A DNA stretch of 64,000 bases from contig JARVJZ010000004.1 of assembly GCA_029775855.1 (NCBI GenBank), positions 96,001 to 160,000 on the forward strand. The letters run 5' to 3'. Each line of letters opens with the position of its first letter. Position 1 is the first letter of the stretch. The translations under genes and the position numbers were made by a program. The notes under the pieces are model-generated. The model saw nothing but the letters and a program-made list of their open reading frames with translations. It was not told the origin of the DNA and searched no databases. Positions 6,433 through 49,567 of this stretch are shown piece after piece. The stretch is from Nitrososphaeria archaeon (GTDB lineage: Archaea > Thermoproteota > Nitrososphaeria > Nitrososphaerales > JAAOZN01).

Positions 6433-6435
6433 CGT

Positions 6436-8218: not shown

Positions 8219-8222
8219 CGCA

Positions 8223-9158
8223 TCAAACCTCCACTCTACTAGGAACTCTAGAAACTATTCTTGTTTTAGATAGAAGCCCTACAAGCCCCTTCGGTCTCAC
8301 CAGCAGCACCAATATGATTATTGCAAAAGGTATTACAGGTTTATAGGTGAACTCGACACCAAAGCTTCTATTCAAAACATCCATAACAAGGTTCTCAGAC
8401 AACCCGACTATGAAGCCTCCAGCTATGGTGCCTGAAAAACTGGTTAATCCGCCGAGAACCACAGCAGCGAAGACCGATAAGAGCGCGAACCAGCCAACAT
8501 AGGGGCTTGCGTAATATAAGATAGCCCAAAGCGCACCAGCAACACCAGCCAACCCACCGGCCAAAAGCCAAGATATGTCTTGAATCTTACCAACATTAAT
8601 ACCAGTAATCTGAGCCAAAGTGATATTATTAGCTACTGAACGCATCATCTTACCAATCTTCGTTCTACTCAAAAGTAGATGTAGGAGAAGAACAAGAATA
8701 AACGCAGTGGGCAAAGACCAGAGGAAAACATTAAGAATCACTGTTGTGCCGATTAGTCCAACAACTTGCTGAGGTATCAGAGGACGCACCTGCAGATACC
8801 CTGTAGGACTAGCCCAAAGCAATATAATGTATCGTAGAACTAAACCTAGGGCAAAAGAAGCCAAAACAAGCGTATACATCGTAGCACCCCGATTAGAGAG
8901 AGGTCTATACACTACACGATGGCAACTAAACGCTACTAAAGCTGTTATAACAAAGGCTAAGATCAACGCAAAAGATATGTCGCTGCTAATTAAGCTTGAC
9001 AAAACAGCCACATAAGCACCTATAGTTATGAGCTCAGCATGCGCAAAGTTAGGCAGCCTAACAACACCAAGAGTAAGAGTTAAACCGAGTGCCATAAGGG
9101 TATATATGCTTCCTATTAAGATTGAACGAAGCACGGAGCCAAGTAGCCAGTCGAACAA
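8223..9158 (-). CDS. livH: Liv-type ABC permease LivH
   Basis: ALGLTLT…PNFAHAE, TKIGKMMRSVA, VRPKGL. Confidence 0.9.
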   Translation of the reverse strand: MFDWLLGSVLRSILIGSIYTLMALGLTLTLGVVRLPNFAHAELITIGAYVAVLSSLISSDISFALILAFVITALVAFSCHRVVYRPLSNRGATMYTLVLASFALGLVLRYIILLWASPTGYLQVRPLIPQQVVGLIGTTVILNVFLWSLPTAFILVLLLHLLLSRTKIGKMMRSVANNITLAQITGINVGKIQDISWLLAGGLAGVAGALWAILYYASPYVGWFALLSVFAAVVLGGLTSFSGTIAGGFIVGLSENLVMDVLNRSFGVEFTYKPVIPFAIIILVLLVRPKGLVGLLSKTRIVSRVPSRVEV

Positions 9159-33453: not shown

Positions 33454-36400
33454 TTACTTGCCTTTGGTTATTCTTGACTTTTTTAGGAGTACTACTATTA
33501 TTGATACTGCTATGAGTAAAATAACTGAGACCAGTAAGGCTAGATTTAAGTTCTCTGGCGCTGAGACCGCAATTTGTGGAGTTGTAGAGGTAGGCGTTTC
33601 ACTTATTGCTTGGGAACTTTCGGTGAATACGCTTTTTTCTCTCTTGGTTTCTATAGTTGTTGTGGTTTCGGTCTTTTCGCTGGCTTGTGTTTTTATAACC
33701 TCTATAGAGCCGCTTGCCTTTAACTTTACGACCGCTAGAACGGGGTCTCCAGTACTCAGAGTAAGAACTATCTCCTTTTTGCCCTCATCGTAAACCCAGT
33801 TTCTTAGCAGTATATATTCTTCTTTCTGCGCAAGGTACTTGAAGATGCCTATTTCATCAGCTTTCTTAACGTCTAATTCACTTATTTTAACACTAACAGC
33901 TACAGATGCTTCATCTGCCTCGATTATATCTAGGAGTAAAAACTTGGCTTTTTCAGCTATTTCGATTACCTTTGACTCTTTGAATGGATTCTCTTGAAGT
34001 TGAGTTATCTGCACCACTATCTTACCCTTTGATTCGACTGTGACACCCAGATTTGAGTGAACTTGCCCTTGACCTACAACAGTTTCACTTTTAGATGTCA
34101 CGCTCCTGAGGGTCAAAACACCAGTAGTAGGCTTTGATAAGGCTACCCCAACAAGAGTAGCGCCGTCTAACCTTAACTCTCCAGATCTAACGACCTTCCC
34201 ATCTAATTCTGCTAAGAACCTAGGCTTCATAACTTCGTCAGACACTAGAACAAGAAAGTTTCTCACACCAGAAAGCTTAATCTTATCGTTTTCAACCTTT
34301 ATAGGCGCATCGGCCCAAACCTCCAACTTACCACCACTGCTATAGTATACTTCTCCACCTTTAGTATCTTCTAGTGAGATTACCGTGGCTGCTACAGTAT
34401 GTCCATCAGCATTCACCTGGAGTACTAAGTTTTCTTTGAGCAGATTTTGATCGACCTCAGCTTCGAAGCTGAATCGTTCTTGGCTTCTAGGCTTTACTTC
34501 TTTTTTATCGGATCTGATTTCGTTATGGCCGTTGGCTAATCCAATATAAACATTCGCTGGCTCATCTCCCAAGTTATGAACGGTAGCTTCGATGCGGGCT
34601 ACCCCTTCTTTTATGCTGATCTCAACATCTTCTTGTCTAAAAACTATCACTGCACGTAATTTCTCAGCATAGCTTCCTGGTTCAGCTCTGCTTACTATTT
34701 GTGCAGCGTCATGTAGCAGCCTAGCCATTTCATCTATGGTTAGTGAGATATAGTACGTGTCTTCGTATGAAAATCTTAATGATGGTGTTGAAACTATTAA
34801 GTTCAAAACGTCTAGGAGCTCTTGGCGAAGAGCCGAGAATAAAGTTAAGTTACCGGCTATTTCGTTTTGCAGCTCGGGTGTAAGAGCTTTTAAGGCTGCT
34901 CTCCTCAACATTAAGTCTGCTGAATTAACTACATCGATGATTAAGTTAAGGTCACTTATACTGTAGCTGACTTGTGATAAGGAAACTAAAAGCCTAGCTT
35001 TAACTTTATTTAATTGTGATGATAAGTCATTTAGGTCTTTGACGTCTTTGTTGTAGTCGGAAAAAAGAGTGGATGGGGAGCCAGTGTTTATCATAAATTT
35101 AGATGGGATGTAAGTCAAAGTTGATTCCAATGGTATAGGTCTAGGTGACTCAAATTGGTTGACAAATAGAGTAGTCTTAGGACTGGCTATACGTAATGTT
35201 ACTAGTGTTGATAGAATTGGTCCGAGAACTTGTGCTGTGTGTATAAGCGCGAAGACAAAAGCTTCAAATTTACTCTCTTGCCCGCCGACGAAAGCGTAGT
35301 ATAGGGTTGGGGTCCAAACCCCCTTTACCGCCATGTCAAACAAACTGCTTAAGATTAAAGCAAGGTAAAGCTTTGCTACTACATCTTTTAAGCCTACTTG
35401 CTTAGTTGTGGTGCCAGCCTTGAAGGTTAGAGGAATGTTCAAAGCCTTTAAGAGTTGGGGGCTTACGGATATGCTTGAACCCATCATCTTCTCGTGTATC
35501 CCATCAAGCCCTCTAGCTATTGACAGTAGGAGTGCTGCAATATTCTGCGCTTTGATTAACACGTCTGCTGTACCATAGAAGAGCTCTTCAGTGTAGCTGT
35601 AGAAGGATGCAGAGGATAATACGCCTTCACGTTCAACCCTACCACTCCACGTTTGAGAGGCTGGCTTTTTGCTTCGTAGAGAAGATAATGGTGAAGTTAG
35701 GCTTTCAAAATCGGCTAGCTCATTCGGATACTTTCCAAGGTTAGGCAGTGAAAGCAGGATTACGTTGTTGAGAGCAGGGATTAGAGGAGAAACTACAGAT
35801 AACACTGGCGTCCCTACAGGGAAATAGGTGTATTGGGAATCGAGCTCGTTCACTACTATTAACTGCATCATCACATTGTAGAGGTACATGAGAGTGTGTG
35901 CTATAAGTGTACTTAAAACTTGAAACATCAATTCAAAACTTAACTCACCTAAAAATTCTCCCATACCGATCAGCGAAGAGTAATAAAATCTTATTAATTT
36001 GAACGAAAAAGCTATAAAAGCAGTGGAGGCTTCTTTACTTCCAAGCATCTCATTAAGGGTTCTGGATATTAAGTCGTTTCCCAGTATATTCAGTAGTGAA
36101 AGTATAGTGCCTTCAGTTACTAGATACGCTATCTTCTTACTGCCTAATATGGTTGCTACTTCTTTTGGTGCGATGTTGGGATACTTCTTAGCGATCTGCG
36201 CAAAAATATTCTTCTGGTTCCAGAATTTAGTATAGCTGAAATATCCTTTAAAGGTCTCTAAGGTCATGGCTAGAGCGAGTATCTTAGAGGTTAGTAGAGT
36301 TGATAATTCAGCATAGAAATAGTTTCTAAGCATTAATCCTTGTAGGGCAACCAGTTTAGCTAGCTTATTCCAGTAGTTAGTTGGGACATCTATATCGGTA

Positions 36401-39400
36401 GGACTTAGCCTGAACTGTGGTAGACTAAGGTTCAGAGGATTATTGAAGACTTCCAGTTCAGTACCCCTAGTCTCTTCTGTGCCTATAGTTGGAAAGATTA
36501 CCCTTGGTCCTATGTACATTAGATCTTCTTGTCTTTTTAAGGTAGTTGCAAAAATTTCTTTAAGAATATTCTTTATGTCTGACTCGCCGCTGAAACGGTC
36601 TAAGGAATTTAAGAGATTTTGAGCAAATCGCAGCATCTGATTTACTATGGTATGGTCAGCAAGTACCATCTTGTAGTTTGGTTCTACAGCAAGTTTCTTT
36701 TGGTAATCAATATAGTATGTGAAAAGTGAGTATGGTAAGTAGAGTTTTACGTCGTAGACCGCAATTCCTTGAGTTTTTTCTTCTTTAGGTATTACAACTC
36801 TAACTCCCGCATCATTAACATTTAAAGTAGGGTATCCTTTAATACCATAAGAACCGAAATATATTGTATAAGATATTCGATAGACCGCATCTTCCTTAAT
36901 ATTCTCATCGTCGTCTAAGGAAACCAGAAGCGGCTTTGAACCCACGCTAAAGCTCTCTATTACTTTGTTAGTCTTGGTGTCGATCAAATTGATAGCTACA
37001 GGTTTGGGTAAGGGTCTCTCAAGCTTTCCGCTATAGATGCTTTCCCTTATAGAAGTGAGAATATTCCTCCTCCAAGGGTTATCTGGGTATCCTAGGTATA
37101 AGTCATACGCAGTGATACGTAAGTATTTTCCAAAGGTGTATATGTCGATCCAGCTCGTGGAATCAGCTCCTCTACTATCCTCCGCTTTTAACCTCAGATA
37201 TAGGAACTTGGGCACATCACCACGTAAGGTTTCATTTAGCTTGCTGTATGAGGGTATCTTAATCTTGAAGTAAGCATATCCAGTTTTATCAGCCTTGCTT
37301 TGCATTTTTGATAGTTGCAGTACAACAGTTTTATTTGTTAGTTCTAACCAACTTTCTAATTTGACTGTAACATCCTCAGAACCTTCACCATAACTTGCGG
37401 TGATAACCTCTACTTCTTCTCCGCTAAGCACTGAATACTTGTCTGGAATTATAAATAAGATCTTACTTTCTCTCTGATACACAGAGGCTTCGGCTTCTCC
37501 ATATGGGAACTCTAATATTGTGTTTACATAAACTTCACCCCCAGAAAACATTAGAGGTGTGTAGGTATTGTTTTGCCGTATTATTTGCCCCATCCAAGCG
37601 AAGATGGCATATTGTGTTTCGCCCTGTTCAACTTGGTTTATCGTATCTTTGTCGACGAATGCTCTATTTAGATATAACTCAGCGTATAACGGAAAAGTCC
37701 TAAATACACCTTTAACAGTAGCGTTGACATATCCTAGTGGCTCACTACTAATTTTGTAGGCCTCAGATTTTTGTTCATGGCTTACTCCGGTGAGATAACT
37801 TTGGTAGGTGGTGGAGCGATCTTCTGCAAACTGCATAAGGACATTAACAGACGGTGGCTTATTATACAGGTAGAGCAGAAGGTCTATCTTAGAACTTGAC
37901 TGGAAGACATCTGAGCTTCTACTTTCATCCCACACTATCTCGTCTTTAAAGAACGCTCTACGCTCTCTTAATGAGTAAAATTTATTATAGTCTATCTCCT
38001 TTGAAACTATCTGAGCTTCTGGTGGGAGTTCAACCTTTTCTTGGATAAAATAAGACTCCCCAGTATAAAGAACTTTTTGGTAACGCTTAAAGTGCATCTC
38101 ATGTGAATACATAATGCATTCTAATGATGTAGCTTCAATCGCATAACCAGGTGGAGCAGGGTTAGGCAACCATCCTCCAACCTTAACTAATCCGCTAACT
38201 CGTGTCTTGGCTTGGGCTTCCTCCACTTCAATACCTAGAGGATTCTTACTGTTCTTATAAAGAGATTGCGCGTGATTATAAAGAATTCCGACATTTAAAA
38301 GTAAAGCCCCATCATCTGCATAACCCGCCTTATTAACACTTAACCTTGTATAGGTAGTGTAGGAGCCGTCGAACTTCACCTGCGGAGTTTCAACGGTATC
38401 GGAGAACGTCTTAAGGTCGTAATGAACATGCTTGAGAAATGCTTGAAATCTTTCAGGCCCTACCTCAACTTCGAAATTAAAGGTTAGCTTAAACCTTTCT
38501 TTTGAATCCGATATGGTTAAGCTGACAATATCATTCCCTTTGTAGACCTCTGGATCAATTATGTAGAAGACTGCGGTGCTAAGGAAGAAACTTTTCATGT
38601 CATTGATAAGCAAGTCTATAGTTTGGTTATGCTTTGTAGTAGCTGCTCCTATAGGCTGGAAGATTCTGGTTTTATTCTTATTCCAAAAGACATGGTGTTT
38701 ATATTCACTAAGATACCGTTCCATCTCCTCCTCAGTCCACTTAACGTGGATTATAGCGCCTGAGGGGTTAGGGGCAACTATATGCTCGTAGTCGGCAGGC
38801 GCGGCTGGAATGAAGTAGCCTACCTTACCCTCTGTGCTCCATGAGACCGTTAAATGAGAATAATAAAGATCATCTACCGGTAAAGAGCCCAACAAACTCA
38901 TTAAATCGTTCGGAAAAGGAATACTCCTCCTTTCACCCTTCAATATACTCCTAACAACACTCAAGATGTTAACCTGTTTGAAACCTAAGGATAGGAGAAG
39001 GCTCTCACCCTTAGGTATCTTCACAGCCCCGCGGTTTGGTATCGTAAGATAAGTGTAAAGCGCTTCAGGGTATTCCTCGTAAACACTTTCAACTGGGAAT
39101 GAAATGTGATAAAACATCACATCGCCTTCTTGGTAAAGAGTGTACATGTTCGGTTTAAGAGAGTCTGGGATATAGCCTCCCCACAACAAGTATTGATCAA
39201 ACTTAATCTTATCTATGCGATAAGTTAGGTTATAGGGCTCACGACCTATCGTAATAGGTCCGACCTTTTTCCAGCCGGGGAAGGAGATGTTTAGCAAGAA
39301 GTAATCTTTGCCCTTGTAGAGATAATTTGTAATATAGTCTAGGTATGTAGGTCTACTTTCAGCCTTCCAAAACTCCAGTGCACCTAAAGGTTCACTAAAA

Positions 39401-39618
39401 CTTATTGGTGGGTCTATAACCTTGCCTAAGCTTTCGTAAGGCAAGCCTCTAAATACAAACATTCCGTTGATTATTAAGTTGTTTGAAAGCCAATTTCTTA
39501 ATTGAGTGTATGGGTCATCTAAGGCCACCGCTAGTGGTGAAGATAAATTTGATAAAGCCAACATAAATATGAGCGATGATGCAGCTAGTTTTAGCGTATG
39601 GTTCTTCATCTCACACAT
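33454..39618 (-). CDS. Giant (2054 aa) secreted, C-terminally anchored surface protein
   Basis: N-terminal signal peptide, Ig/CARDB-like segment (IEATVHNLGDEPA), S/T-rich linker, C-terminal TM helix plus basic tail; internal hydrophobic helices. Confidence 0.8.
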   Translation of the reverse strand: MCEMKNHTLKLAASSLIFMLALSNLSSPLAVALDDPYTQLRNWLSNNLIINGMFVFRGLPYESLGKVIDPPISFSEPLGALEFWKAESRPTYLDYITNYLYKGKDYFLLNISFPGWKKVGPITIGREPYNLTYRIDKIKFDQYLLWGGYIPDSLKPNMYTLYQEGDVMFYHISFPVESVYEEYPEALYTYLTIPNRGAVKIPKGESLLLSLGFKQVNILSVVRSILKGERRSIPFPNDLMSLLGSLPVDDLYYSHLTVSWSTEGKVGYFIPAAPADYEHIVAPNPSGAIIHVKWTEEEMERYLSEYKHHVFWNKNKTRIFQPIGAATTKHNQTIDLLINDMKSFFLSTAVFYIIDPEVYKGNDIVSLTISDSKERFKLTFNFEVEVGPERFQAFLKHVHYDLKTFSDTVETPQVKFDGSYTTYTRLSVNKAGYADDGALLLNVGILYNHAQSLYKNSKNPLGIEVEEAQAKTRVSGLVKVGGWLPNPAPPGYAIEATSLECIMYSHEMHFKRYQKVLYTGESYFIQEKVELPPEAQIVSKEIDYNKFYSLRERRAFFKDEIVWDESRSSDVFQSSSKIDLLLYLYNKPPSVNVLMQFAEDRSTTYQSYLTGVSHEQKSEAYKISSEPLGYVNATVKGVFRTFPLYAELYLNRAFVDKDTINQVEQGETQYAIFAWMGQIIRQNNTYTPLMFSGGEVYVNTILEFPYGEAEASVYQRESKILFIIPDKYSVLSGEEVEVITASYGEGSEDVTVKLESWLELTNKTVVLQLSKMQSKADKTGYAYFKIKIPSYSKLNETLRGDVPKFLYLRLKAEDSRGADSTSWIDIYTFGKYLRITAYDLYLGYPDNPWRRNILTSIRESIYSGKLERPLPKPVAINLIDTKTNKVIESFSVGSKPLLVSLDDDENIKEDAVYRISYTIYFGSYGIKGYPTLNVNDAGVRVVIPKEEKTQGIAVYDVKLYLPYSLFTYYIDYQKKLAVEPNYKMVLADHTIVNQMLRFAQNLLNSLDRFSGESDIKNILKEIFATTLKRQEDLMYIGPRVIFPTIGTEETRGTELEVFNNPLNLSLPQFRLSPTDIDVPTNYWNKLAKLVALQGLMLRNYFYAELSTLLTSKILALAMTLETFKGYFSYTKFWNQKNIFAQIAKKYPNIAPKEVATILGSKKIAYLVTEGTILSLLNILGNDLISRTLNEMLGSKEASTAFIAFSFKLIRFYYSSLIGMGEFLGELSFELMFQVLSTLIAHTLMYLYNVMMQLIVVNELDSQYTYFPVGTPVLSVVSPLIPALNNVILLSLPNLGKYPNELADFESLTSPLSSLRSKKPASQTWSGRVEREGVLSSASFYSYTEELFYGTADVLIKAQNIAALLLSIARGLDGIHEKMMGSSISVSPQLLKALNIPLTFKAGTTTKQVGLKDVVAKLYLALILSSLFDMAVKGVWTPTLYYAFVGGQESKFEAFVFALIHTAQVLGPILSTLVTLRIASPKTTLFVNQFESPRPIPLESTLTYIPSKFMINTGSPSTLFSDYNKDVKDLNDLSSQLNKVKARLLVSLSQVSYSISDLNLIIDVVNSADLMLRRAALKALTPELQNEIAGNLTLFSALRQELLDVLNLIVSTPSLRFSYEDTYYISLTIDEMARLLHDAAQIVSRAEPGSYAEKLRAVIVFRQEDVEISIKEGVARIEATVHNLGDEPANVYIGLANGHNEIRSDKKEVKPRSQERFSFEAEVDQNLLKENLVLQVNADGHTVAATVISLEDTKGGEVYYSSGGKLEVWADAPIKVENDKIKLSGVRNFLVLVSDEVMKPRFLAELDGKVVRSGELRLDGATLVGVALSKPTTGVLTLRSVTSKSETVVGQGQVHSNLGVTVESKGKIVVQITQLQENPFKESKVIEIAEKAKFLLLDIIEADEASVAVSVKISELDVKKADEIGIFKYLAQKEEYILLRNWVYDEGKKEIVLTLSTGDPVLAVVKLKASGSIEVIKTQASEKTETTTTIETKREKSVFTESSQAISETPTSTTPQIAVSAPENLNLALLVSVILLIAVSIIVVLLKKSRITKGK

Positions 39619-39867: not shown

Positions 39868-41688
39868 ATGTGCATCAATTTGAGCGTCAAGCATCTTTTA
39901 TCAAGGAGGCAGACTCTTGCCGTCCTCCTTACAATTGCGATTATTGGAGGGTTACTTTTCATTCCTCAAGCATCCGCCATCAGGGTGGAGATAAGCGGTA
40001 TAACCAGCGGTGAAACTATAACGCTTGGTGTAGTTAAAGAACTTGAGTTTAGGATAGTTGTGGAAAGCGGCGAAGTGGTGCCTGTGCAAGAGATACGTGT
40101 AGTCATAGATGGTGTGCAATACACAGCTCCACCTACTGGTGGTGACCTAACACCAGCAAACAGCATCATACCAACAATCACACTAGTTACACCACCACCA
40201 GGCTACTTCTACTCAGCAAGCTACGGCTACGGATACGGATACCTCTACGGATACGGATATGCATTCGGATATGGATACAGAGCTCTCTACGGCTACGGTT
40301 ACGGATATGGTTTCACATCTGGCAGCCAGATAAGGTATTCAGCATCACTCTACACATCATATCTAAGTTTAGGCAGCCACACAATAAGGGTTGATGTAGC
40401 GACTGGTCTCCAGCCCTCAAACATATTCTCCTCACAGACCATATCGTTCACGTTAGTATCCCCGCCTACACCTACACAACCAGCACCATCAGCACCACCA
40501 ACAGCGTCTGATCTCGAAGCTATGTCTGCTGAGGAGAGGGCTGCACAACTTACACAGATGAATGCATCTGACGCAGCAAATAGAATTGAGCAGATGAGCG
40601 TAGACAAAGCTGTAGAAGCAATAAAGGCGATGAACGCTACAGACGCAGCAAGAATACTTAACCTCGTCAACACAACTAGAGCTGCTCAAATCCTAGCCAG
40701 ATTAACCGTTGAAGAAGCGGTTAGAATTACACTTAACCTCAACGTGGACAAAGCTGCAGACGTCGTTTTAACGATGGATGTAAGAGAAGCCGCGCCGGTA
40801 GTTGAGGGAATGACTAGGGAGAATCTGCATAGGGCTGCTCAAGTAGTAGATAATATGATTGCTAAGGATGCTGCAGGCGCAGCTAGAGTTATAGATGAAC
40901 TACCTCCAGACGTGGCAGCTGATCTACTACTCGAGATAGCTGGGTTGCCCTCAACACCTGAGAAGGCCGCTATGCTCATAGATGCGATGAGCTTAACGAA
41001 GGCTGTTGACGCCGTAAAGTCGATTATAGCATCCAACAAGATGCAGACACTCGCACAGATACTCAGCCACGTATCAACAAGCAGACTCAACGAAATATTC
41101 AAGCAGCTCTCATCTAGTGAGAGGCTCAGAACCCTACCATATCTCGACGCAGCGACACAAGCTAGGTTGAAACACGTAAAGGCGACCTTGACAGTAGAAA
41201 GGGTGGATGCACAGCCGGGCAGCTCAGTCAAAGTTAGGTTGGCCCTATCATCTACTCAACCCATACCTGAAGGCTCTGTATCATTCAGCATCCCAGCCGC
41301 TTTCAAGACAAAAGCTCTATCTGTTGAAGGGCTACCTGGAACATCTGCAAGAGAGGCTACTAGGCTCATAGTCACTAAGTTGGCTACTCAACCATCATAC
41401 GCAGCTGCTTCAGTCGCATTCGACTTGGTTGTGCCACTTAACGCCAGCGTCTCGGTTGGGCAGATTGTCACGGTAGTTGCGTCGGTGAACGTGCCAGACT
41501 TTGCTGTAAGCTTTGACACACCAACAGCGGTAAGTGTGACTGTGGTTAAACCTACGGTGCAGAGCATATTCAGCGCCTTAAACTCCTACTTCGATAAGAC
41601 AGTAAGCGTATACACTGAGGGAAGAGTGCCTGTGAAGCAAGACATATACAGCTTACTGGACTTCTACTTCAGAGGGAGAGTGGATTAA
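39868..41688 (+). CDS. Secreted protein: YG-rich domain, MgtE-N-like helical repeats, cohesin-like domain, C-terminal dockerin-like helices
   Basis: Signal peptide ending ASA; YGYG tract; AADxxxxM repeats; AQPGSSVKV beta-sandwich; twin xIxSxLxxYF helices. Confidence 0.75.
   Translation: MCINLSVKHLLSRRQTLAVLLTIAIIGGLLFIPQASAIRVEISGITSGETITLGVVKELEFRIVVESGEVVPVQEIRVVIDGVQYTAPPTGGDLTPANSIIPTITLVTPPPGYFYSASYGYGYGYLYGYGYAFGYGYRALYGYGYGYGFTSGSQIRYSASLYTSYLSLGSHTIRVDVATGLQPSNIFSSQTISFTLVSPPTPTQPAPSAPPTASDLEAMSAEERAAQLTQMNASDAANRIEQMSVDKAVEAIKAMNATDAARILNLVNTTRAAQILARLTVEEAVRITLNLNVDKAADVVLTMDVREAAPVVEGMTRENLHRAAQVVDNMIAKDAAGAARVIDELPPDVAADLLLEIAGLPSTPEKAAMLIDAMSLTKAVDAVKSIIASNKMQTLAQILSHVSTSRLNEIFKQLSSSERLRTLPYLDAATQARLKHVKATLTVERVDAQPGSSVKVRLALSSTQPIPEGSVSFSIPAAFKTKALSVEGLPGTSAREATRLIVTKLATQPSYAAASVAFDLVVPLNASVSVGQIVTVVASVNVPDFAVSFDTPTAVSVTVVKPTVQSIFSALNSYFDKTVSVYTEGRVPVKQDIYSLLDFYFRGRVD
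40201..40314 (+). repeat. Tyr-Gly dipeptide repeat coding tract
   Basis: tacggc/tacgga/tatgga hexamers encoding GYFYSASYGYGYGYLYGYGYAFGYGYRALYGYGYGYGF. Confidence 0.9.
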
Positions 41689-41689
41689 G

Positions 41690-42616
41690 ATGAATAAGTT
41701 ATGCTTTAATAACTTGACTTCATATGGATGTGCGGGTAAAGCCTTGAAGATATACACCTATACAGCTTTAGCGATTCTTATACTTGCCTCAGTATTGACA
41801 TTCCTACCTAACGTATATTCAGCGCAAGCAACAGCTGCCTTCAATCTCTCAGATGGTTTGATTAAGGTTGAAGTCACAAGCCCGGTAGAAGTCTATCAAT
41901 TTCAACTCTCAATAACTCTACCTAGTGGTGCAACCATCAATGCTGCGCAAGCATCTACCACGGGCTTCATGGAGAATGCGGTCTTCCTGCAGGTGGGCAA
42001 TGAATATAGGTGGTTCAATCTTGACGCAAAACCATCGAAGGTAGGCTCATTAACCGTGCCAGCTTCTGGAGTAGGTGTAGACAACTTACCTCAGCTGCAG
42101 CTAGTAAGATTGGATCTGCTGGACGCGGGTGGAAATAAGATAGATCTTCAGCAGACATTACCGCTAAAGGCTACACTGGCACCGATTACAGTGACAACTA
42201 CGGTTAGGGAGACTATAACCACGACAACAACCGTAACCCAGACAACAACGCGCACAACCACAGTAACACAGCCTACAACAACCACACTCACATCAACCAT
42301 AACGCAGCCGACCACAATTACAACTACCTCTACAGTCACACAACCAACCACAGTCACAATAACGGTTACTTCAACAACAACTCAGCCAACAACAGTTACC
42401 GCGACATCTACAACTACAGCAACCGAAGTCAAAACCACAACTCAGACAACTACATCAACATCCACATACACAATAACTAGAACAGAGCTAGCAACTACAA
42501 CGGCCTACAAAGAGATAACCGTAGACACAACACCATACATAGCAGGCATCGTTATACTGATAATTATAATCATCATCCTAGCGATCCTAATGCTTAGACG
42601 CAAAGCAGCGGTCTAA
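41690..42616 (+). CDS. Membrane-anchored cohesin-like protein with Thr-rich stalk
   Basis: Signal peptide; VEVTSPVEVYQFQLSITL…LDLLDAGGNKI; about 110-aa Thr stalk; TM helix followed by RRK. Confidence 0.75.
   Translation: MNKLCFNNLTSYGCAGKALKIYTYTALAILILASVLTFLPNVYSAQATAAFNLSDGLIKVEVTSPVEVYQFQLSITLPSGATINAAQASTTGFMENAVFLQVGNEYRWFNLDAKPSKVGSLTVPASGVGVDNLPQLQLVRLDLLDAGGNKIDLQQTLPLKATLAPITVTTTVRETITTTTTVTQTTTRTTTVTQPTTTTLTSTITQPTTITTTSTVTQPTTVTITVTSTTTQPTTVTATSTTTATEVKTTTQTTTSTSTYTITRTELATTTAYKEITVDTTPYIAGIVILIIIIIILAILMLRRKAAV
42190..42530 (+). repeat. Thr-rich low-complexity stalk coding sequence
   Basis: TTVTQPTT units. Confidence 0.85.
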
Positions 42617-42644
42617 ACCCCAATTTTTTAAACTTAGATAAAAG

Positions 42645-42717
42645 TGCGGGATGCGGGATTCGAACCCGCGACCACCAGCTTGGGGGGCTGGTATCCTAAC
42701 CACTAGACCAATCCCGC
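42645..42717 (-). tRNA. tRNA-Gly(CCC)
   Basis: Reverse complement GCGGGAT…CCAGC-CC-CCC-AA-GCTGG…TTCGAAT…ATCCCGC-A. Confidence 0.95.
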
Positions 42718-42833
42718 CACATTAACTTCCCCTTCAGCCTCCTTTAAACCGTTACTCCCTTCTTTCTCAAGGAAGGGAGAAGATACTGAGAAGTAAAATC
42801 TTTAATCAAGCATTTCAGTAGCTAGAGTGAAGG

Positions 42834-42968
42834 GCCGCGGTCGCCTAGGCTAAACAAGGGGGAGACGCTAAATGCCCCAGCTCGGTAGGGCGCAGGCCTG
42901 GAGCCTTAGTCCAGCTTGTTAGCCTGTGACCCGCAAGGGTCTCGAGGGTTCAAATCCCTCCCGCGGCG
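42834..42968 (+). tRNA. tRNA-Ser(GGA) with a 32-nt D-loop insertion (about 42849-42880) and an anticodon intron (42904-42920)
   Basis: GCCGCGG/CCGCGGC acceptor stem; CAGGC-CT-GGA-G|A-GCCTG; variable arm similar to the Ser(GCT) copy. Confidence 0.88.
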
Positions 42969-43036
42969 CTCTCTATTAAGAAGCTGGTTAATATTAAAGA
43001 TATTTAACGATTTAGGGAACTTTACTACTTATTATA

Positions 43037-43058
43037 GTTAATTAATTAATTAATTAAC
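43037..43058. repeat. Perfect 22-bp palindrome g(TTAA)5c upstream of the candidate defence operon
   Basis: gttaattaattaattaattaac. Confidence 0.85.
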
Positions 43059-43096
43059 AAAAAATTTATATTTCAGATGCGCTCTTACTCAGTTCT

Positions 43097-43366
43097 ATGA
43101 ATTGGAAGGCGTCGAGTAAAGATTTCCGTGAAGAATTAGAAAGAATCTTCCAAGAAGGCGAGCGTAAAGGCTTACAATATGTAGATGTTATTTCAGGTGA
43201 GCTACATAGGAGAGTAGGTGGGTACCCCGGACGCAATCATAGAATGCCGCTCTGTTGTCACGTTATGCGAAGTATGATGCAAGAAGAAGATGAAGTGCTT
43301 GCTGAGCCGCCTAAAGGTAATGGGGCTACCCTAAAGATAAGGTATAGATTGCCAAGGAGGGTTTGA
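43097..43366 (+). CDS. Small conserved protein (GELHRxVGGYPGxNHRMPxCC family), putative DNA-binding
   Basis: Motif recalled from small proteins and domains associated with HNH nucleases; not verified by a search. Confidence 0.7.
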   Translation: MNWKASSKDFREELERIFQEGERKGLQYVDVISGELHRRVGGYPGRNHRMPLCCHVMRSMMQEEDEVLAEPPKGNGATLKIRYRLPRRV

Positions 43367-43367
43367 A

Positions 43368-43841
43368 GTGAGGATTCTTATAGTCGTACCTTGCGGGAAG
43401 AGTAAGATCTGGGATGTAGACCAGGACAGAGGGCCGACGAGGGCAGAGGAAGCATACACTGGAGGGCCGTTCAAGGTTAATCGGGCGTTTGCAAAGAGAT
43501 TCGCCGATAGATGGGTGATCCTTTCAGCTAAATACGGTTTCATAGACCCGTCTTTCACTATCCTCGAAAATTATAACGTGACATTTAAAGACCCTTCTAC
43601 TAACCCGATAAGTTTAGAACAGCTAAGAAGCCAGGTGGATGAGATGAAGCTGGATGCATACGATGTCGTGATAGCCTTAGGCGGCAGAGATTACACATCA
43701 ATAGTCAAGAGGTGTTTTGGCGATAAAAAGAAGGTGATATGCCCAGCTGAAGGGCTGCCGGTGGGTAAAGCTATGGGGTGCATCAGTAATCTTACAAATC
43801 TCGACAGAGAGGAGATGCTAAGGGAGATAGGTTTGTGTTAA
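43368..43841 (+). CDS. DUF6884-like protein
   Basis: VVPCGKSK…AYTG…F…WVILSAKYG…YNVT…LGGRDY. Confidence 0.75.
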   Translation: MRILIVVPCGKSKIWDVDQDRGPTRAEEAYTGGPFKVNRAFAKRFADRWVILSAKYGFIDPSFTILENYNVTFKDPSTNPISLEQLRSQVDEMKLDAYDVVIALGGRDYTSIVKRCFGDKKKVICPAEGLPVGKAMGCISNLTNLDREEMLREIGLC

Positions 43842-44482
43842 TGTGGAGAAATTCTGTGGAAGAAATCTGTAGATGTGTACATGAACTTATCAGCTCACTG
43901 TCAGCGTACTCTAATCCCAGTCAAGTGTCTTTCACCAATGGCCTATACTTCTTTTACGAGAAGGGGGAAGTGTCCATTCATGCACCCAATGGTCGTGTTG
44001 TTAGAGTAGGTAATCACCCATATTCAAGCAATGGTTTAAAAAGGCGCTTGCAGCTCCACTACTCTGGAAACAAGAATAGCAGCGTGTTCCGCAAGTTCCT
44101 TGGAGGAGCTTTAATGCGTAGAGAAAACCCTGCACATCCATGTTTACCTCATTGGGAAAAGCAAGGCCAACCTACCTGCAAAGTATGCAGGAAGGTCGAA
44201 GAAGATGTTTCAAATCTTCTAAGAGCTAACTTCTACTTCCGATGTGTAAAGATCGAGGATAAAGGGACGCGTAATCTTCTTGAGAAAAAGCTGATAGCCA
44301 CAATCTCTTCATGTAAGATATGTAAGCCGTCTGGAAATTGGTTAGGGAGGTACGCATATTCAGATCTTGTTAGAAGTTCTGGTTTATGGAACTCTAATTA
44401 TGTTTATGATGGGGATTGGGTTATGTCAGCAGAAGATTTAAATTTGCTGCGTAATCTGATACAGTTAACGCGTGTAAGGTAA
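43835..44482 (+). CDS. GIY-YIG-like nuclease
   Basis: GLYFF…VVRVG…LKRRLQLH…SVFR…LEKKLI…GLWN; two CxxC motifs. Confidence 0.7.
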   Translation: MLMWRNSVEEICRCVHELISSLSAYSNPSQVSFTNGLYFFYEKGEVSIHAPNGRVVRVGNHPYSSNGLKRRLQLHYSGNKNSSVFRKFLGGALMRRENPAHPCLPHWEKQGQPTCKVCRKVEEDVSNLLRANFYFRCVKIEDKGTRNLLEKKLIATISSCKICKPSGNWLGRYAYSDLVRSSGLWNSNYVYDGDWVMSAEDLNLLRNLIQLTRVR

Positions 44483-44634
44483 TGACAGCGCAGAGCCGTA
44501 TTGTTCTTTGCAGCTATTGTAAGAGAAGAAGGGCGGAATATGACATTGGCAGCGAGGTTTATCTATGCAAGGAATGTTACGAGGAGTGGCACTTTAACGC
44601 TTTTCAACAGATGAGTGAATTCAGCTTATTCTAA
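44482..44634 (+). CDS. 50-aa zinc-finger protein (not in the ORF track)
   Basis: TAATG coupling to the nuclease stop; MTAQSRIVLCSYCKRRRAEYDIGSEVYLCKECYEEW…. Confidence 0.65.
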   Translation: MTAQSRIVLCSYCKRRRAEYDIGSEVYLCKECYEEWHFNAFQQMSEFSLF

Positions 44635-45851
44635 CGATACACCGCTCTTTTTGAACGATCAACACCCACTGGAAGCAGAAGTATAACGCTTAAGACCATT
44701 GCCGCTGCTGAAAGTGTAAAGGCTGGGCTATAGCTACCCATAGACTCACGTAGAAAGCCCGCAACAATAGGAGATACTGTAGCACCGATACCGTAAAATA
44801 AGGTCCATAAGCCGATTACTGATCCAGACGACTTCTCCTCAAAATACTCTGAAGCGCAAGCTGCATATATAGGGAACATAGACGCATAAAAGATGCCGTA
44901 CATAATGGCTAAGAGCATCAGTAGATGGAGACTTGCTCCAATAGCAACCATGCTGTAGATTGACACTGCGACACCAAGGTTGCAGAGGGCTAAGCCTTGT
45001 ATTCGACCTATTTTGTCTGATAGATATGGGAGGATTAGACTTGCGGGGATGCCGCTGAAGGCAACGGCGCTAGCCAGTCCTGCCGAATAAGCATAATCTA
45101 TTGAGAGATCTATGTTAAAGTATGCTACCATAAAGGTCATCGTGGTGCTTGTAGCGAAGGCTATAGCAAAGTATGATGAGGCTATGAACCAGAACGTTCC
45201 TGATGATAAGATTATTTGAGTTGCTTCTTGTGTTCTAAATTCTCTTCGTCTATCCGTTGATTCTTTTTCTTTTAGGAGAAGCGCTGAGGCTGCAGCTAGT
45301 GTTAGGGTGAAGACGCCCATTAGATACCATCCATGCTGCCAACCATAGGTGTCTACAATTATTGGCAGCAGTAAACCCATCAAGCCGTATCCAACACCAT
45401 AGCCTGAATTCACTACTCCTATTGCTCTACCTCTCTTCTCAGCTTTAAACCACATAGTAACAAGCCTTATGATTGCAACCCATCCAGCGTGTGAACCAAC
45501 CCCGACGAGCGCGAATAAGAAGACTCCTAGAGACCACTCTTTAACAGAACCCATCATAAATGTGCCGAACCCCATCACCACACAGAGCAGCGGTATAACC
45601 TTCTTGCAGCCAACTCTATCAACCATGAAGCCTATCAGTGGCGCTGATAGCGTATATGAGAGGAAATAGGCGCTTGCTATAAACCCGCTCTGAACATCTG
45701 TCAAATTTAGAGAAGACTTCATCGGCGGTATTAGAATACCGTATCCAAACCTTATGCCATATGATGCGAGCACAAGAAGAAAACCTACACCAAGTATCAC
45801 ATAACCCCAGTAAAAGCGCTTGAGCATCCTCTTGTATGAGAATAGACCCAT
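44631..45851 (-). CDS. MFS transporter
   Basis: GFMVDRVG, WFKAEKRGRAIG, SDKIGR; 12 hydrophobic segments. Confidence 0.9.
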   Translation of the reverse strand: MGLFSYKRMLKRFYWGYVILGVGFLLVLASYGIRFGYGILIPPMKSSLNLTDVQSGFIASAYFLSYTLSAPLIGFMVDRVGCKKVIPLLCVVMGFGTFMMGSVKEWSLGVFLFALVGVGSHAGWVAIIRLVTMWFKAEKRGRAIGVVNSGYGVGYGLMGLLLPIIVDTYGWQHGWYLMGVFTLTLAAASALLLKEKESTDRRREFRTQEATQIILSSGTFWFIASSYFAIAFATSTTMTFMVAYFNIDLSIDYAYSAGLASAVAFSGIPASLILPYLSDKIGRIQGLALCNLGVAVSIYSMVAIGASLHLLMLLAIMYGIFYASMFPIYAACASEYFEEKSSGSVIGLWTLFYGIGATVSPIVAGFLRESMGSYSPAFTLSAAAMVLSVILLLPVGVDRSKRAVYR

Positions 45852-45905
45852 TAGATTAAGTTTCTCTTTTTAATAAAAATATGAAGTGGGTAGGTTTTCT
45901 TTATG

Positions 45906-46679
45906 CTACCTACCCTTAAAGACAGGCTTCCTCTTTTCCAGAAACGCTCTCATAGCCTCCTTTTGATCCTCAGTTGTGAAGAGTGGAAGCTGCTCGAGCT
46001 GCTGGTAAAGTAGCCCATCGTCGATCTGCATCTCTCCACCAACATTGATGGTCATCTTGATGGCGCCGATTGCCTTTGTCGGCCCGTTTGCTAATTGATT
46101 GGCGATTCTAAATGCTTCTTCAAAGAGTTTATCTGCTGGAACGACCCAGTTGACTAATCCAAGCTTCTGAGCTTCCCAAGCTGATATTGGATCTGGGAAG
46201 AAGAGGAGCTGCTTGGCCTTTAATCTGCCAACCCATCTAACTAGAAGCTGGGAGATTCCTGCGCCTGGTGAGATTCCTACGCCTACCTCTGGGTTGGCTA
46301 ATCTTGCGTCATCAGCAGCAACGATGAGGTCAAAGCCGTTCAGCATATCCATTACGCAGAAGCCGTTGACCGCAGCTATAATCGGCTTCCTCAGCCTCAT
46401 CATATATTTGTAGAGCTCTATCATTTTGCCGTTAAACTTGAGCATGAATTCTGGGGTTGCATCTTTGAACTCCTGTAAGTCGCCACCAGCATTAAAGTTC
46501 CTACCAGCAGCTGTGAATAGTATGGCTCTTACACTATCGTCTTCACCGGCTCTGTGCATGGCATCCCAGAGCTCAGAGACCATCTGAGAGTTGACTGCAT
46601 TATTCACCTCAGGTCTATTCAAAGTGATTATAGCAACGCCGCCACGCTGCTCATACTTGATAGTCTTATACTCAGACAT
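45906..46679 (-). CDS. Crotonase/enoyl-CoA hydratase superfamily protein
   Basis: TLNRPEVNNA, FNAGGDL, KPIIAAVNG, PEVGVG, AFLEKRKPVFKG. Confidence 0.9.
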   Translation of the reverse strand: MSEYKTIKYEQRGGVAIITLNRPEVNNAVNSQMVSELWDAMHRAGEDDSVRAILFTAAGRNFNAGGDLQEFKDATPEFMLKFNGKMIELYKYMMRLRKPIIAAVNGFCVMDMLNGFDLIVAADDARLANPEVGVGISPGAGISQLLVRWVGRLKAKQLLFFPDPISAWEAQKLGLVNWVVPADKLFEEAFRIANQLANGPTKAIGAIKMTINVGGEMQIDDGLLYQQLEQLPLFTTEDQKEAMRAFLEKRKPVFKGR

Positions 46680-46761
46680 AGCGCATCGTTAAGCATTTAT
46701 CAAAAGGGTCTTTTTAGCCTTTCGACTAAAAGGTTAAAGCATCTTATGTCTTTCAAAATCT

Positions 46762-47460
46762 ATGATGCAGAGGGCTAAGGTAGGTACATCTGGATACAGC
46801 TACTTTTGGAACTTAGGTGTGCCTACACCCTTTGAGTGGTATGTTAAACAAGGCTTTAACACAGTCGAGATCAATGCAAGCTTCTACCGTTTTCCCTCTC
46901 CAAGCTGGATCAAGGCTTGGAGTAAAGCGCCCTCAGGATTTGATTTCTCCGTTAAGGTGCATCGCTCTCTAACACACTACGCTAAGCTTTCAGAGAAAGC
47001 AGTAAAGCTTTGGTATATCTTCAAAGATCTGTTCAAACCTATTGGGGACAGAATTGCTTTCTGGCTCTTTCAGATGCCTCCAAGCTTTACACCAACAGAA
47101 AAGAACCTAAAACGCATTAAAGCCTTCTTCAACACGCTGCATCTAGGCTCATCAGCTGCTGTTGAATTTAGGGATCCCGCGTGGTGGAGCGTTAAAAATG
47201 ATTTAAAGGATTGTGAGGTTACTTTCTGCTCAGTAGATGCACCTTTTCTGCCGAGAGAAATAGTCTGTCTGAGTGATGCGCTCTATCTTAGGCTTCACGG
47301 TAGAGAAGAGTGGTACGCTTACACATATAGTAGGCGTGAACTTGAGGAGATTGCGAAGCGGGTTAAAGAAGCGCAAACAGAGAGAATATACATATATTTG
47401 AACAACGACTTTGGTATGCTAGAGAATGGCAAACTTCTACTGAAGCTTTTAGAAGAGTAG
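46762..47460 (+). CDS. DUF72 family protein
   Basis: VGTSGYSY, VEINASFYR, FQMPPSF, YLRLHG, YLNND. Confidence 0.9.
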   Translation: MMQRAKVGTSGYSYFWNLGVPTPFEWYVKQGFNTVEINASFYRFPSPSWIKAWSKAPSGFDFSVKVHRSLTHYAKLSEKAVKLWYIFKDLFKPIGDRIAFWLFQMPPSFTPTEKNLKRIKAFFNTLHLGSSAAVEFRDPAWWSVKNDLKDCEVTFCSVDAPFLPREIVCLSDALYLRLHGREEWYAYTYSRRELEEIAKRVKEAQTERIYIYLNNDFGMLENGKLLLKLLEE

Positions 47461-47505
47461 GGTTAACTTTATCTACAATAAATAAGGTAATCATGCTGTA
47501 TTACT

Positions 47506-48000
47506 TTGGCGCGCAGACGCATATTTCTACTCGTACTTCTCGCTCTGATAGGGGTTGCTGCATCAGGCTCAGCATCAGCTATGGGCAAAGAAGAAGCGAA
47601 TAAGATGCTAGAAGATGTGAAAAAGAGTGTACCCTCTTCGCCAAATATTATAGACATATTCACTAACAACCTTAGAGTAGCTCTGCTTATGCTAATACCA
47701 GGATTAGGGCTTATTCTAGCACCCTATGTGCTCTACAACACAGGATTGGTCTTCGCAGCCACAGGTGTAGTGAATGGTGTACCCGGTTTAATGCTTCTTT
47801 TGGCAACAGCTATTTTACCCTTTTTTTGGCTTGAGTTCGTAGCGTATGCCACATCCACCACGCAGAACCTATATCTGATATGGGCGATTAAGTCCAAGAC
47901 TCTTCGCTATGAGCTACGAAACCTTGGCTACAGCTTACTTATGATAGTACTCTTACTTCTGTTAGGCGCTTGGATAGAAACGCTCTTTCTATCTTCTTAA
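47506..48000 (+). CDS. Stage II sporulation protein M / DUF95 membrane protein
   Basis: IFTNNLRVAL…P…LEFVAY…GAWIET. Confidence 0.8.
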   Translation: MARRRIFLLVLLALIGVAASGSASAMGKEEANKMLEDVKKSVPSSPNIIDIFTNNLRVALLMLIPGLGLILAPYVLYNTGLVFAATGVVNGVPGLMLLLATAILPFFWLEFVAYATSTTQNLYLIWAIKSKTLRYELRNLGYSLLMIVLLLLLGAWIETLFLSS

Positions 48001-48001
48001 C

Positions 48002-49447
48002 CTACTTAATTTTCTGATTGAGTCTAATCTTATTGTTGAGTTTCTCAAGTAGCCAAGGCATATACTTCTTGACCAACATAAGCATCTCGTCATTTCCTAT
48101 CCTTGTAAGTCTACCTTCATCATACTTAGCTTGAATCTCTCTGTGGATCTCAGATACTCCAGGTGTTGACTTTGTAACCTTATTTTCTCCCGTGAGTCTA
48201 AAGTAGTGGTTTATCCAGAATACAACACCAGCTAACCCCGAATATTCAGAAACTGCTACACTTGGAGAGCGATCCAAGAGCTTCTCGGTGTCGAACGGCA
48301 GATACATTTCTATATTCTTTAATAATCCGTCTGCGTGTATTCCAGCCCAAGTTATGTTGAAGTTCTCGCCTACTATAGGGTAGTATGAAGGTATGCTGTA
48401 ACCCACTTCCTCTTCGTAATATTGGGCTATCTTGGTTATGACTTTAGTGTCCATCCCATCTAAGTCGCCTTTTATGGTTGCATACATGAAGACCATCGCT
48501 TCTAAGGGTACATTTCCAGCCCTTTCACCTATACCCAGCAAGGTGCAGTTTACTAGCGATGCACCATATAGCCAAGCTGATACAGAGTTAGCAACACCCA
48601 TGTGAAAATCGTTATGCCCATGAAACTCCAGACAATCAGATGGAACATCACATAAATTGTTGATTACCCAGATTAGCTTCGGCACGCTTCGTGGAAGCGC
48701 GCTCGAATCCCAAGGTAGTCCTATACCTAGTGTGTCGCATACCCTAACCTTAGCTGGTAACCCATATTTTCGCGAGAGTTTCATAAGTTTCTTTATGAAT
48801 GGTACTACCACACCAAAGATGTCAGCCCTTGTGCTGTCCTCTAAATGCACTCTTGGCACTATACCAAGCTTGAAGGTTTCTTCAGCAACCTCAAGATACT
48901 TTGATATAACCTTCTGCCTTCCTAACCCTTGAAACTTATAGAAGATATGGTAGTCGCTTACTGGTGTAACCATACCGCACTCCTCTACACCACTTTCTTT
49001 AACGAGCCTAAGGTCTTCGTACGTAGGTCTCATCCAACCAGCGATAATAGGATATTCATAGCCAAGATTTCTACAGGCCTCAACAGCTTCTCTATCCTTC
49101 TTAGAGTATAAGAAGAATTCTGATTGAAGAACCTTTCCCTTAGAGCCGCCTAACTCGTGTAATAGTGTATAAAGATCAACTATCTGCTTAACGGTATAGG
49201 GTTCACGCGCCTGCTGCCCGTCTCTAAATGTAGTGTCTGTTATCCAGATCTTGTCAGGTATCTTTATGGGTAAGAGAACACCGTCGAAGACAGTTAAAGG
49301 AGGCTTATCCCAAGGAAAGAACTCCTTGTAAAGCTTCGGCTGAGGCACTTCTACAACTTCGTAGTCAGGAAGGTCTATAGATTCCTTTCGAAGGTAGGAT
49401 AGGAATTCCTGTCTTTTTTCGTAATCAAGGTAGTTCCACTTGCTCAA
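48002..49447 (-). CDS. Re-citrate synthase-like DRE-TIM acyltransferase
   Basis: IWITDTTFRDGQQA, QSEFFLY, SDYHIF, HLED, HGHNDF, GIHADGL. Confidence 0.78.
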   Translation of the reverse strand: MSKWNYLDYEKRQEFLSYLRKESIDLPDYEVVEVPQPKLYKEFFPWDKPPLTVFDGVLLPIKIPDKIWITDTTFRDGQQAREPYTVKQIVDLYTLLHELGGSKGKVLQSEFFLYSKKDREAVEACRNLGYEYPIIAGWMRPTYEDLRLVKESGVEECGMVTPVSDYHIFYKFQGLGRQKVISKYLEVAEETFKLGIVPRVHLEDSTRADIFGVVVPFIKKLMKLSRKYGLPAKVRVCDTLGIGLPWDSSALPRSVPKLIWVINNLCDVPSDCLEFHGHNDFHMGVANSVSAWLYGASLVNCTLLGIGERAGNVPLEAMVFMYATIKGDLDGMDTKVITKIAQYYEEEVGYSIPSYYPIVGENFNITWAGIHADGLLKNIEMYLPFDTEKLLDRSPSVAVSEYSGLAGVVFWINHYFRLTGENKVTKSTPGVSEIHREIQAKYDEGRLTRIGNDEMLMLVKKYMPWLLEKLNNKIRLNQKIK

Positions 49448-49567
49448 GGTTCCTAACTATACCTATTGGATAGAGAGTATATTACCTTATCGCTTTTCTG
49501 GGCAAACTAGCAGCAAATCACCCTATCACTTAACATTTGTCGATTAAAGTGTGTTCTTGCTGGACGA

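Follow-up and report, generated by a model that had tools for sequence, protein, structure and literature searches.

This analysis concerns a compact set of four genes, designated A to D, in a 64,000-nucleotide stretch of DNA from a hot-spring archaeon of the class Nitrososphaeria (contig JARVJZ010000004.1, positions 96,001 to 160,000; this whole stretch is referred to as the window, and all coordinates are those of the window unless a contig is named). The four genes lie within 43097-44634 on the plus strand (~1.6 kb). On balance, we lean towards reading them as an accessory DNA-targeting system of the PDC-M57 type, in which a DNA reader is combined with a nuclease, and the role of which is probably antiviral. 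PDC-M57 is a candidate system in the PADLOC collection; the core of the operon (B and C) corresponds to it and was already known, and A, D and the four-gene architecture are additions to the catalogued candidate. A first-pass annotation of the window had proposed an undescribed antiviral or nuclease system at this site: what it had observed (the open reading frames (ORFs), their motifs and a tRNA) is real, its interpretation stands in part, and its claim of novelty fails for the core, which matches a system that already has a name.

Gene A (43097-43366) encodes 89 amino acids (aa); gene B (43368-43841) encodes 157 aa, from a GTG start codon preceded by GGAGG; gene C (43835-44482) encodes 215 aa, also from a GTG start codon; and gene D (44482-44634) encodes 50 aa. 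The gap between A and B is 1 nucleotide (nt), B and C overlap by 7 nt, and C and D meet in the sequence TAATG. An alternative start for C, the ATG at 43841, would give B and C a TAATG overlap in place of the 7-nt overlap. Four same-strand ORFs with these very junctions had been claimed to form one tightly coupled operon; all are present as described, and the junctions bear the claim out. The B/C junction is bridged by metatranscriptome contigs from two libraries of one study (43645-43954 and 43506-43977), a weak hint of expression, given that such libraries may contain DNA; the contigs from the RNA libraries cover neither A nor D. The first base of the stop codon of gene A (T at 43364) is an A in one DNA sequencing run, and a protein that is 97 % identical to that of gene A is 102 aa long. 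Thus, gene A of the sister strains is 13 codons longer and crosses the start of B.

By its sequence, gene B encodes a DUF6884 protein, for which a YaaA-like fold is predicted. The match to the Pfam family DUF6884 (PF21818) has an E value of 2.8e-15 and a score of 57.1 bits, against a cut-off of 30, and a search of the whole genome agrees. Both signature motifs are present, CxxxK as C9-G-K-S-K13 and LSAxxG as L52-S-A-K-Y-G57, so that the earlier description of this ORF as DUF6884-like was correct. The PADLOC model PDC-M57A (PDLC04712) is matched at 2.7e-12, with residues 1-141 of the protein on profile positions 1-134 of 138. In an alignment of 16 diverse sequences, C9, K13, Y30, S53, G57 and Y69 are invariant. 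Among the families of PHROGs, B matches phrog_5935 (2.1e-11), the function of which is not named there; weak matches to three DpdC models cover residues 22-88 (1.9e-4 to 1.1e-3); and a search of NCBIfam gave no match for B, nor for A or C. The accessible text of PMC11701544 describes DUF6884 as a relative of the DNA-binding protein YaaA, carrying the CxxxK and LSAxxG motifs and probably binding DNA. Gene B may be regarded as encoding a putative DNA-binding, base-flipping reader or enzyme.

Gene C is the only gene of the PDC-M57B type in the genome, and it matches that model (PDLC04713) at 7.1e-39 over profile positions 3-207 of 211. Its product is best described as a predicted divergent nuclease of the GIY-YIG fold with a clade-specific Cys-rich insert. 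The AlphaFold2 (AF2) model has a predicted local distance difference test score (pLDDT) of 94.9 and a core with the order beta-beta-alpha-alpha-beta-alpha, in which helices flank a three-stranded sheet as in the GIY-YIG fold. When this model was compared with 48,161 chains by VIA-align, the best matches were EndoII of phage T4 (Z 5.6, root-mean-square deviation 3.4, 103 residues aligned), the N-domain of UvrC (5.4, 2.8, 85) and I-TevI (5.3, 2.9, 87), followed by AtGRXS16-N (Z 5.2), R.Eco29kI (4.8), PD-T4-3, which is specific for 5-hydroxymethylcytosine (3.8), HIGLE (2.9), Slx1 (2.7) and Hpy188I (2.3); the top 7 of the 20 rows are all what we take to be GIY-YIG-type folds. A search of the Protein Data Bank (PDB) with a sequence profile gave no match for C, and neither did PHROGs.

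The catalytic set of GIY-YIG nucleases consists of a first Tyr (in GIY), a second Tyr (in YIG), an Arg and a Glu. In an alignment by hhalign with a Pfam-positive GIY-YIG protein of a sister cassette (probability 70.6 %, E 3.9e-5), Y38 of gene C falls on the Tyr of GIY, R71 on the Arg and H75 on the His, while the place of the YIG Tyr is taken by R57. Across the 22 members of the gene C family, no variation is seen at Y38, R57, H75 or E150, and R71 is kept in at least 90 %. There are two CxxC motifs, C115xxC118 and C160xxC163, of which the latter is common in the family, whereas C103, C115 and C118 occur only in the subclade to which the window belongs. The protein also has a long helical insert, which contains Cys residues, and a C-terminal extension rich in Trp. 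The third ORF had been called GIY-YIG-like at the outset, and the AF2 model, VIA-align and hhalign bear out this fold, with the score in Pfam remaining below threshold.

Gene A encodes a small domain without a name. It carries GELHRRVGGYPGRNHRMPLCC, and the consensus of the domain is LHRRVGGYPGRNHRMPxCC. There was no match to Pfam or NCBIfam at E <= 1, none of significance in PADLOC, and none in PHROGs. The homologues collected comprise 118 short proteins (E <= 1e-16) and 38 long ones; H37 never varies among them and H48, C53 and C54 hardly do, such that a metal site is conceivable. The AF2 model (pLDDT 89.5) has the topology H-E-H-H-E-E, which fits the H1-S1-H2-H3-S2-S3 of a winged helix. The best VIA-align matches (Z 6.3-5.0), for the most part winged-helix DNA binders, include RctB, JetABC (8dk1_E), GntR-type regulators, E2F, F-112 and Z-alpha, with Smr domains among them as well, and scores this low may reflect no more than a common arrangement. 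Foldseek against the PDB gave nothing at E <= 0.001 (best E 0.09), and a sequence-profile search of the PDB gave nothing useful (best E 0.32). From the model, gene A is likely to encode a small winged-helix-like subunit, acting in DNA binding or as an adaptor.

In some sources, homologues of gene A are labelled "HNH endonuclease" or "McrA". This label finds no support: no HNH domain is seen by sequence (for the 38 long homologues, none was recognised among the Pfam families assigned beforehand), and the topology of the AF2 model and its VIA-align matches point to a winged helix.

The gene A domain also occurs in natural fusions. Of its 38 long homologues, 8 carry DUF6884/YaaA-type domains in the same protein. 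One of these (P0136) is a B-A fusion, the B domain of which is 50 % identical to gene B of the window; another protein is a triple fusion of A, C and B in one ORF of 466 aa (P0148, at L008), to which the precomputed family PF26468 is assigned; and in a third (P0140), the gene A domain and a DUF6884/YaaA domain are joined to an AGOG domain, i.e., an 8-oxoguanine glycosylase/lyase. By these predicted domain orders, gene A is firmly linked to the B and C core. The domain is rare: it was found in 3 of 401 genomes of the phylum of the window, its own genome included and one match being weak, and as one weak match among 401 genomes of another phylum. These searches, of 401 genomes each, provided no cellular contexts for a stand-alone A. 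The domain is also carried, free-standing or fused, by predicted tailed-phage contigs (L058:4929-5231, L060:1662-1925, L062:4119-5207 and L064:4995-5240). There, its sites resemble those of morons: between the head-closure and Neck1 genes, behind the major head gene, or adjoining a serine integrase. No PHROG family covers the viral copies.

Gene D is the smallest of the four. A 50-aa ORF with a CxxC…CxxC zinc finger had been pointed out at its position, and both motifs are indeed read in the translation (C10xxC13 and C29xxC32), together with a conserved FQQMxEFxxF tail. It is thus predicted to be a zinc ribbon, possibly an accessory subunit. It has no significant match to a PADLOC model, and its homologues are few: 5 matches in 1.84 billion representative sequences, two of them small and full-length, and 8 metagenome loci, with 7 near-full-length copies. 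At one locus of another lineage (L044), D directly follows a single protein that unites TPR and DUF6884 with a GIY-YIG domain of the canonical kind (PF01541, scoring above the cut-off), and at L046 it follows a decayed copy of the same arrangement. None of the 27 genome loci of gene C has a D. Thus, D is linked to DUF6884 and GIY-YIG in two unrelated contexts, not consistently, and its membership of the system is moderately supported.

At L044-L050, D is always found ~60 nt upstream of a gene of the Sir2 family and downstream of a methyltransferase-like gene of 377-393 aa. A complex of B, C and D was also predicted. With D as the partner, the median score was 0.51, as against 0.00 for the best of three controls, the runs had no fewer than 54 % of their contacts in common, and the pLDDT of the partner was at least 67; this outcome was graded weak and is not counted as evidence. 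In the calibration, which holds roughly in this case (our own alignments were used), 58 of the 80 solved complexes pass, as do 2 of the 110 mismatched pairs, and those that pass at a score of 0.60 or less comprise only 7 of the 80 solved complexes and both of the passing mismatches.

For the core itself, co-occurrence provides support. Of the 27 genome loci of C, in archaea as well as bacteria, 21 have a B-like gene no more than 2.5 kb away, so that the homologues do travel together. In the order of the window, the other full-length matches to C all have B alongside (3/3): one as a fusion, one as a pair, and one as a pair in which B is fragmentary. The same holds for at least 2 of 4 IMG/VR contigs and for a Deinococcus megaplasmid, on which the neighbour of C is named "DUF6884 domain-containing protein" in RefSeq. 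Fusions occur in both orders, C+B (L006) and B+C (L037). The fusions as a whole (A-C-B, B-A, C+B and TPR-B-GIY-YIG) argue for a single complex, i.e., for a predicted machine of reader and nuclease.

The distribution of the system is patchy. Among 201 genomes of the order, 5 have the M57B gene; the 3 other genomes of the genus all lack it, and the DNA of the operon has no match in 30 relatives. Gene C matches 8 plasmid records, in each of which it is annotated as "hypothetical protein", whereas a search of 50,697 phage records gave no match; copies of the C type are also found in predicted viral contigs. The nearest relatives of C are at loci L002-L007, those of B at L018 and L009, the C proteins of which are only 33-40 % identical to that of the window.

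The genes around C were surveyed at the 27 loci (128 ORFs no shorter than 120 aa and no further than 4 kb from C, found by a simple longest-ORF caller, excluding the B and C genes and two ORFs in the wrong frame; the pool is a container for scanning, without meaning as an alignment). Type I restriction subunits (R at most 5, S 3) were the most frequent families, GajB-like, DRT-RT and CARF models were matched by 2 ORFs each, and Pfam found ResIII (5), Methylase_S (3), HSDR_N (2) and BglII (2). On a Thermoplasmata contig (L025:1591-2868), HEPN_Swt1, TPR and a zinc ribbon are fused to the N-terminus of a PDC-M57B-type domain, and a DUF6884 gene lies just upstream. On an Acidobacteriaceae contig (L004:5518-6924), the C domain has an N-terminal extension of 154 aa without a Pfam match; no DUF6884 neighbour was detected at this locus, and the large ORFs beside it appear, by eye, to be genes for DndD/SMC-like ATPases.

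How the four proteins might act together can be proposed as follows. The B protein would bind DNA and probably flip a base into a pocket that the invariant Cys, Lys, Ser and Tyr residues line, and would thereby recognise an unusual base, either modified or damaged. The C protein would then cut the DNA. The A protein would add DNA binding or targeting within the same complex, and D, the zinc ribbon, might be an accessory that docks on C. The most likely net role would be accessory, horizontally moving restriction of the DNA of viruses or other foreign DNA. The analysis establishes how the genes are ordered and coupled, their families and folds, the fusions joining A, B and C, the patchy occurrence and the site in a variable stretch; we infer the base flipping, the substrate, that C acts as a nuclease, that the operon is antiviral, and what D contributes. 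The combination of a sensor or reader with a nuclease had been suggested in the first-pass annotation, and this is reasonable. The same annotation had noted that no methyltransferase is present, and none was found by Pfam among the neighbouring ORFs; therefore, the action would be modification-dependent (as in type IV systems) or by abortive infection. A bolder version, which we regard as rather improbable, is that the four proteins form one complex which is a new modification-dependent restriction enzyme: DUF6884 would flip out a hypermodified base (e.g. a 7-deazaguanine derivative) and probe it chemically by way of its invariant Cys/Lys pocket, the winged-helix domain with its HRRVGGYPG sequence and the zinc ribbon would aim and license the GIY-YIG nuclease, and tailed phages would carry the winged-helix domain as a moron, with which they would either jam systems of this kind or keep out phages that compete with them.

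The operon lies directly behind a tRNA gene (42834-42968, plus strand), the end of which is ~128 nt from the start of gene A; a tRNA-Ser(GGA) about 130 nt away had been claimed here. When the stems are read directly, this is a tRNA-Ser(GGA) with an acceptor pairing of GCCGCGG (42834-42840) with CCGCGGC (42961-42967) and with two introns, one in the D-arm, which is non-canonical, and one in the anticodon loop. On the native sequence, ARAGORN reports a tRNA-Thr(agt) at 42874-42969, and the Rfam tRNA model calls no tRNA at this site; once a D-arm segment of 31-37 nt is excised, ARAGORN gives a full-length tRNA-Ser(gga) from 42834 with an anticodon-loop intron. The tRNA-Thr(agt) reading has mismatches in the acceptor stem, and the stems and the excision test favour tRNA-Ser(GGA), which is the better reading and agrees with the claim. 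Between the tRNA and gene A there is an AT-rich (TTAA)n palindrome (43032-43070, plus strand) with four inverted repeats, and a TATA-like TTTATAT box ~25 nt 5′ of the ATG of gene A. The region 43032-43096 is a putative archaeal promoter, which would give a transcript with a short leader or none; of the palindromic promoter proposed earlier, the palindrome was detected and the function as a promoter is conjectural.

A comparison by blastn with a genome of the same genus (G003) delimits a variable stretch behind the tRNA. Window 42644-42969 corresponds to 5913-6233 of contig C37 of G003, and window 46776-49513 to 6310-9021 of the same contig; in G003, only 76 nt separate the two tRNAs from the DUF72 and SpoIIM-like genes that come next (window 46762-47997). 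Thus, the window holds an extra stretch of 3.8 kb (42970-46775), which begins at the 3′ end of the tRNA and is absent from G003. In addition to the operon, it contains two genes on the minus strand identified by Pfam, one for a transporter of the major facilitator superfamily (MFS; 44631-45851, convergent with D) and one for an enoyl-CoA hydratase (45906-46679). The profile of GC composition shows no clear anomaly across the operon, and the sole tRNA-derived repeat is a 13-nt match of 85 % identity inside gene C. On the other side of the tRNA pair there are, at 39868-42616 (plus strand), two proteins of secreted or membrane type, the first with MgtE_N-like repeats and a stretch rich in Tyr and Gly, the second extremely rich in Thr and with a C-terminal membrane anchor; before these, at 33454-39618 (minus strand), there is an ORF of 2053 aa with no Pfam match at E <= 0.001 and no PADLOC match. 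In G003, the relative of the Thr-rich gene and the tRNA pair are on separate contigs, so that the pair may be a break in synteny on both sides.

Several observations weigh against an antiviral system of reader and nuclease. Some of these concern the nuclease: gene C scores 14.8 bits with Pfam GIY_YIG_2, below the cut-off of 22.4; only 1 of 22 members of its family is recognised by Pfam as GIY-YIG (E <= 0.1); Foldseek finds nothing for it in the PDB at E <= 0.001; its VIA-align scores are modest (Z at most 5.6); and the position of the second catalytic Tyr is occupied by the invariant R57. Others concern how closely the components are tied: C has no B neighbour in 6 of the 27 loci, 5 of the 7 near-full-length metagenome loci of D are without B or C, and A stands alone in 13 viral (IMG/VR) contigs, in none of which it adjoins B or C. 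The surroundings are not those of a defence island either. None of the 10 flanking ORFs matches PADLOC at 1e-5, and those identified are for the MFS transporter, the enoyl-CoA hydratase, DUF72, SpoIIM-like, HMGL-like and tRNA-editing proteins. The 3.8-kb indel holds two ordinary metabolic genes as well as the operon, and the stop codon of D overlaps that of the convergent MFS gene. Insertion behind the tRNA had been claimed: a strain-variable stretch does start at the 3′ end of tRNA-Ser(GGA), but there is no integrase among the neighbours and no att repeat at the locus. The tally of genes near C has no background control, and most of these neighbours are housekeeping genes. Finally, the name PDC-M57 was not found in the searchable main text of the literature, and no member has been tested.

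A different role to consider is DNA repair: B would sense a lesion, be it base damage, an abasic site or a ribonucleotide embedded in the DNA, C would nick beside it in the manner of UvrC or of other alternative-excision nucleases, and A and D would aid DNA binding. DUF6884 is related to YaaA, and the accessible text of PMC11701544 lists YfjM of Bacillus subtilis, a DUF6884 protein, among the interactors of abasic and ribonucleotide lesions, which points to repair. The fusion protein P0140 couples A and DUF6884/YaaA to the AGOG domain, UvrC and Slx1 are among the structural neighbours of C, and the neighbourhood in the window is of the housekeeping kind. The system is nevertheless too patchy for core repair (5/201 genomes in the order, 0/3 in the genus), it is found on plasmids and in predicted viral contigs, related loci have type I restriction-modification (RM) genes as neighbours and a HEPN fusion, and the PDC cassettes were picked up embedded in defence systems, according to the accessible text of bioRxiv 10.1101/2024.01.29.577857. 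We therefore hold a repair module to be unlikely, though worth keeping in mind.

DpdC modifies a base chemically in the DNA of its own host. If B were to mark the host DNA in a similar way, C could restrict any DNA without the mark, as in Dpd or RM systems. The invariant Cys, Lys, Ser and Tyr of B suggest catalysis over mere binding, and B does match the three DpdC models, but the matches are weak and partial, and no genes of the DpdA/DpdB type or of the preQ0 pathway are found among the 10 neighbours (the rest of the genome was not searched), which makes such a system highly improbable. The same can be said of a selfish nuclease cassette of the homing or addiction type, persisting through its own mobility without benefit to the host, in which some of the genes, D above all and possibly A, would be passengers with no relation to the rest. 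Homing endonucleases are a classic case of GIY-YIG domains, and I-TevI is among the structural matches of C; the discordance between the nearest relatives of B and those of C suggests shuffling; A can be inserted, in the manner of a moron, where the head and neck genes of a phage adjoin; and D of the other lineage is always just upstream of the Sir2 gene, whether B and C are present or not. Against this, there is no intron, intein or target-gene context, no conserved gene is interrupted, the fusions tie A to B and C, and D lies behind DUF6884 and GIY-YIG in two unrelated genomic contexts, though both families are rare. A role for the operon in restricting foreign DNA is, on this evidence, the reading we prefer.

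DUF6884 is still a domain of unknown function, and none of its members that are paired with a nuclease is known to have a demonstrated role. PDC-M57 is scattered across archaea and bacteria, and the copy in the window adds to it two components and several natural fusions; one of these components, gene A, is a small, unnamed and mis-annotated domain that is borne by phages as well. A compact set of four genes in 1.6 kb, with clear predicted catalytic residues, would offer a route to what DUF6884 may read in DNA.

Among known systems, the closest is PDC-M57 of PADLOC itself. B and C match both of its models over their full length and are adjacent, on the same strand and translationally coupled; the operon of the window differs in having the coupled genes A and D, neither a significant PADLOC match, and in that its C belongs to the subclade with the extra Cys cluster (C103, C115, C118). 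As far as the accessible text describes them, the PDC systems are 145 untested systems from a guilt-by-embedding screen, the genes of which are embedded in BREX, DISARM and type I RM systems (Payne et al., bioRxiv 10.1101/2024.01.29.577857). With the GIY-YIG nucleases (T4 EndoII, the UvrC N-domain, I-TevI, R.Eco29kI and PD-T4-3), C shares the core, conserved residues that align with the GIY Tyr, Arg and His, and a conserved Glu as the putative equivalent of theirs, whereas its Pfam score is below threshold, its YIG Tyr is replaced by Arg, it has a helical Cys insert and a W-rich C-terminus, and its Z scores are only 5-6. B passes the Pfam cut-off and has the CxxxK and LSAxxG motifs of the DUF6884/YaaA family, to which YaaA of Escherichia coli and YfjM of B. 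subtilis belong, but those two proteins are tied, in the accessible text of PMC11701544, to oxidative stress and DNA lesions rather than to defence; its likeness to DpdC of the 7-deazaguanine Dpd system is weak. The type IV enzymes of the McrA type differ in their HNH domain from gene A, which has none and is of winged-helix topology. What they would have in common with the operon, if its predicted dependence on modification is correct, is the logic of a DNA reader and a nuclease that work without a methyltransferase.

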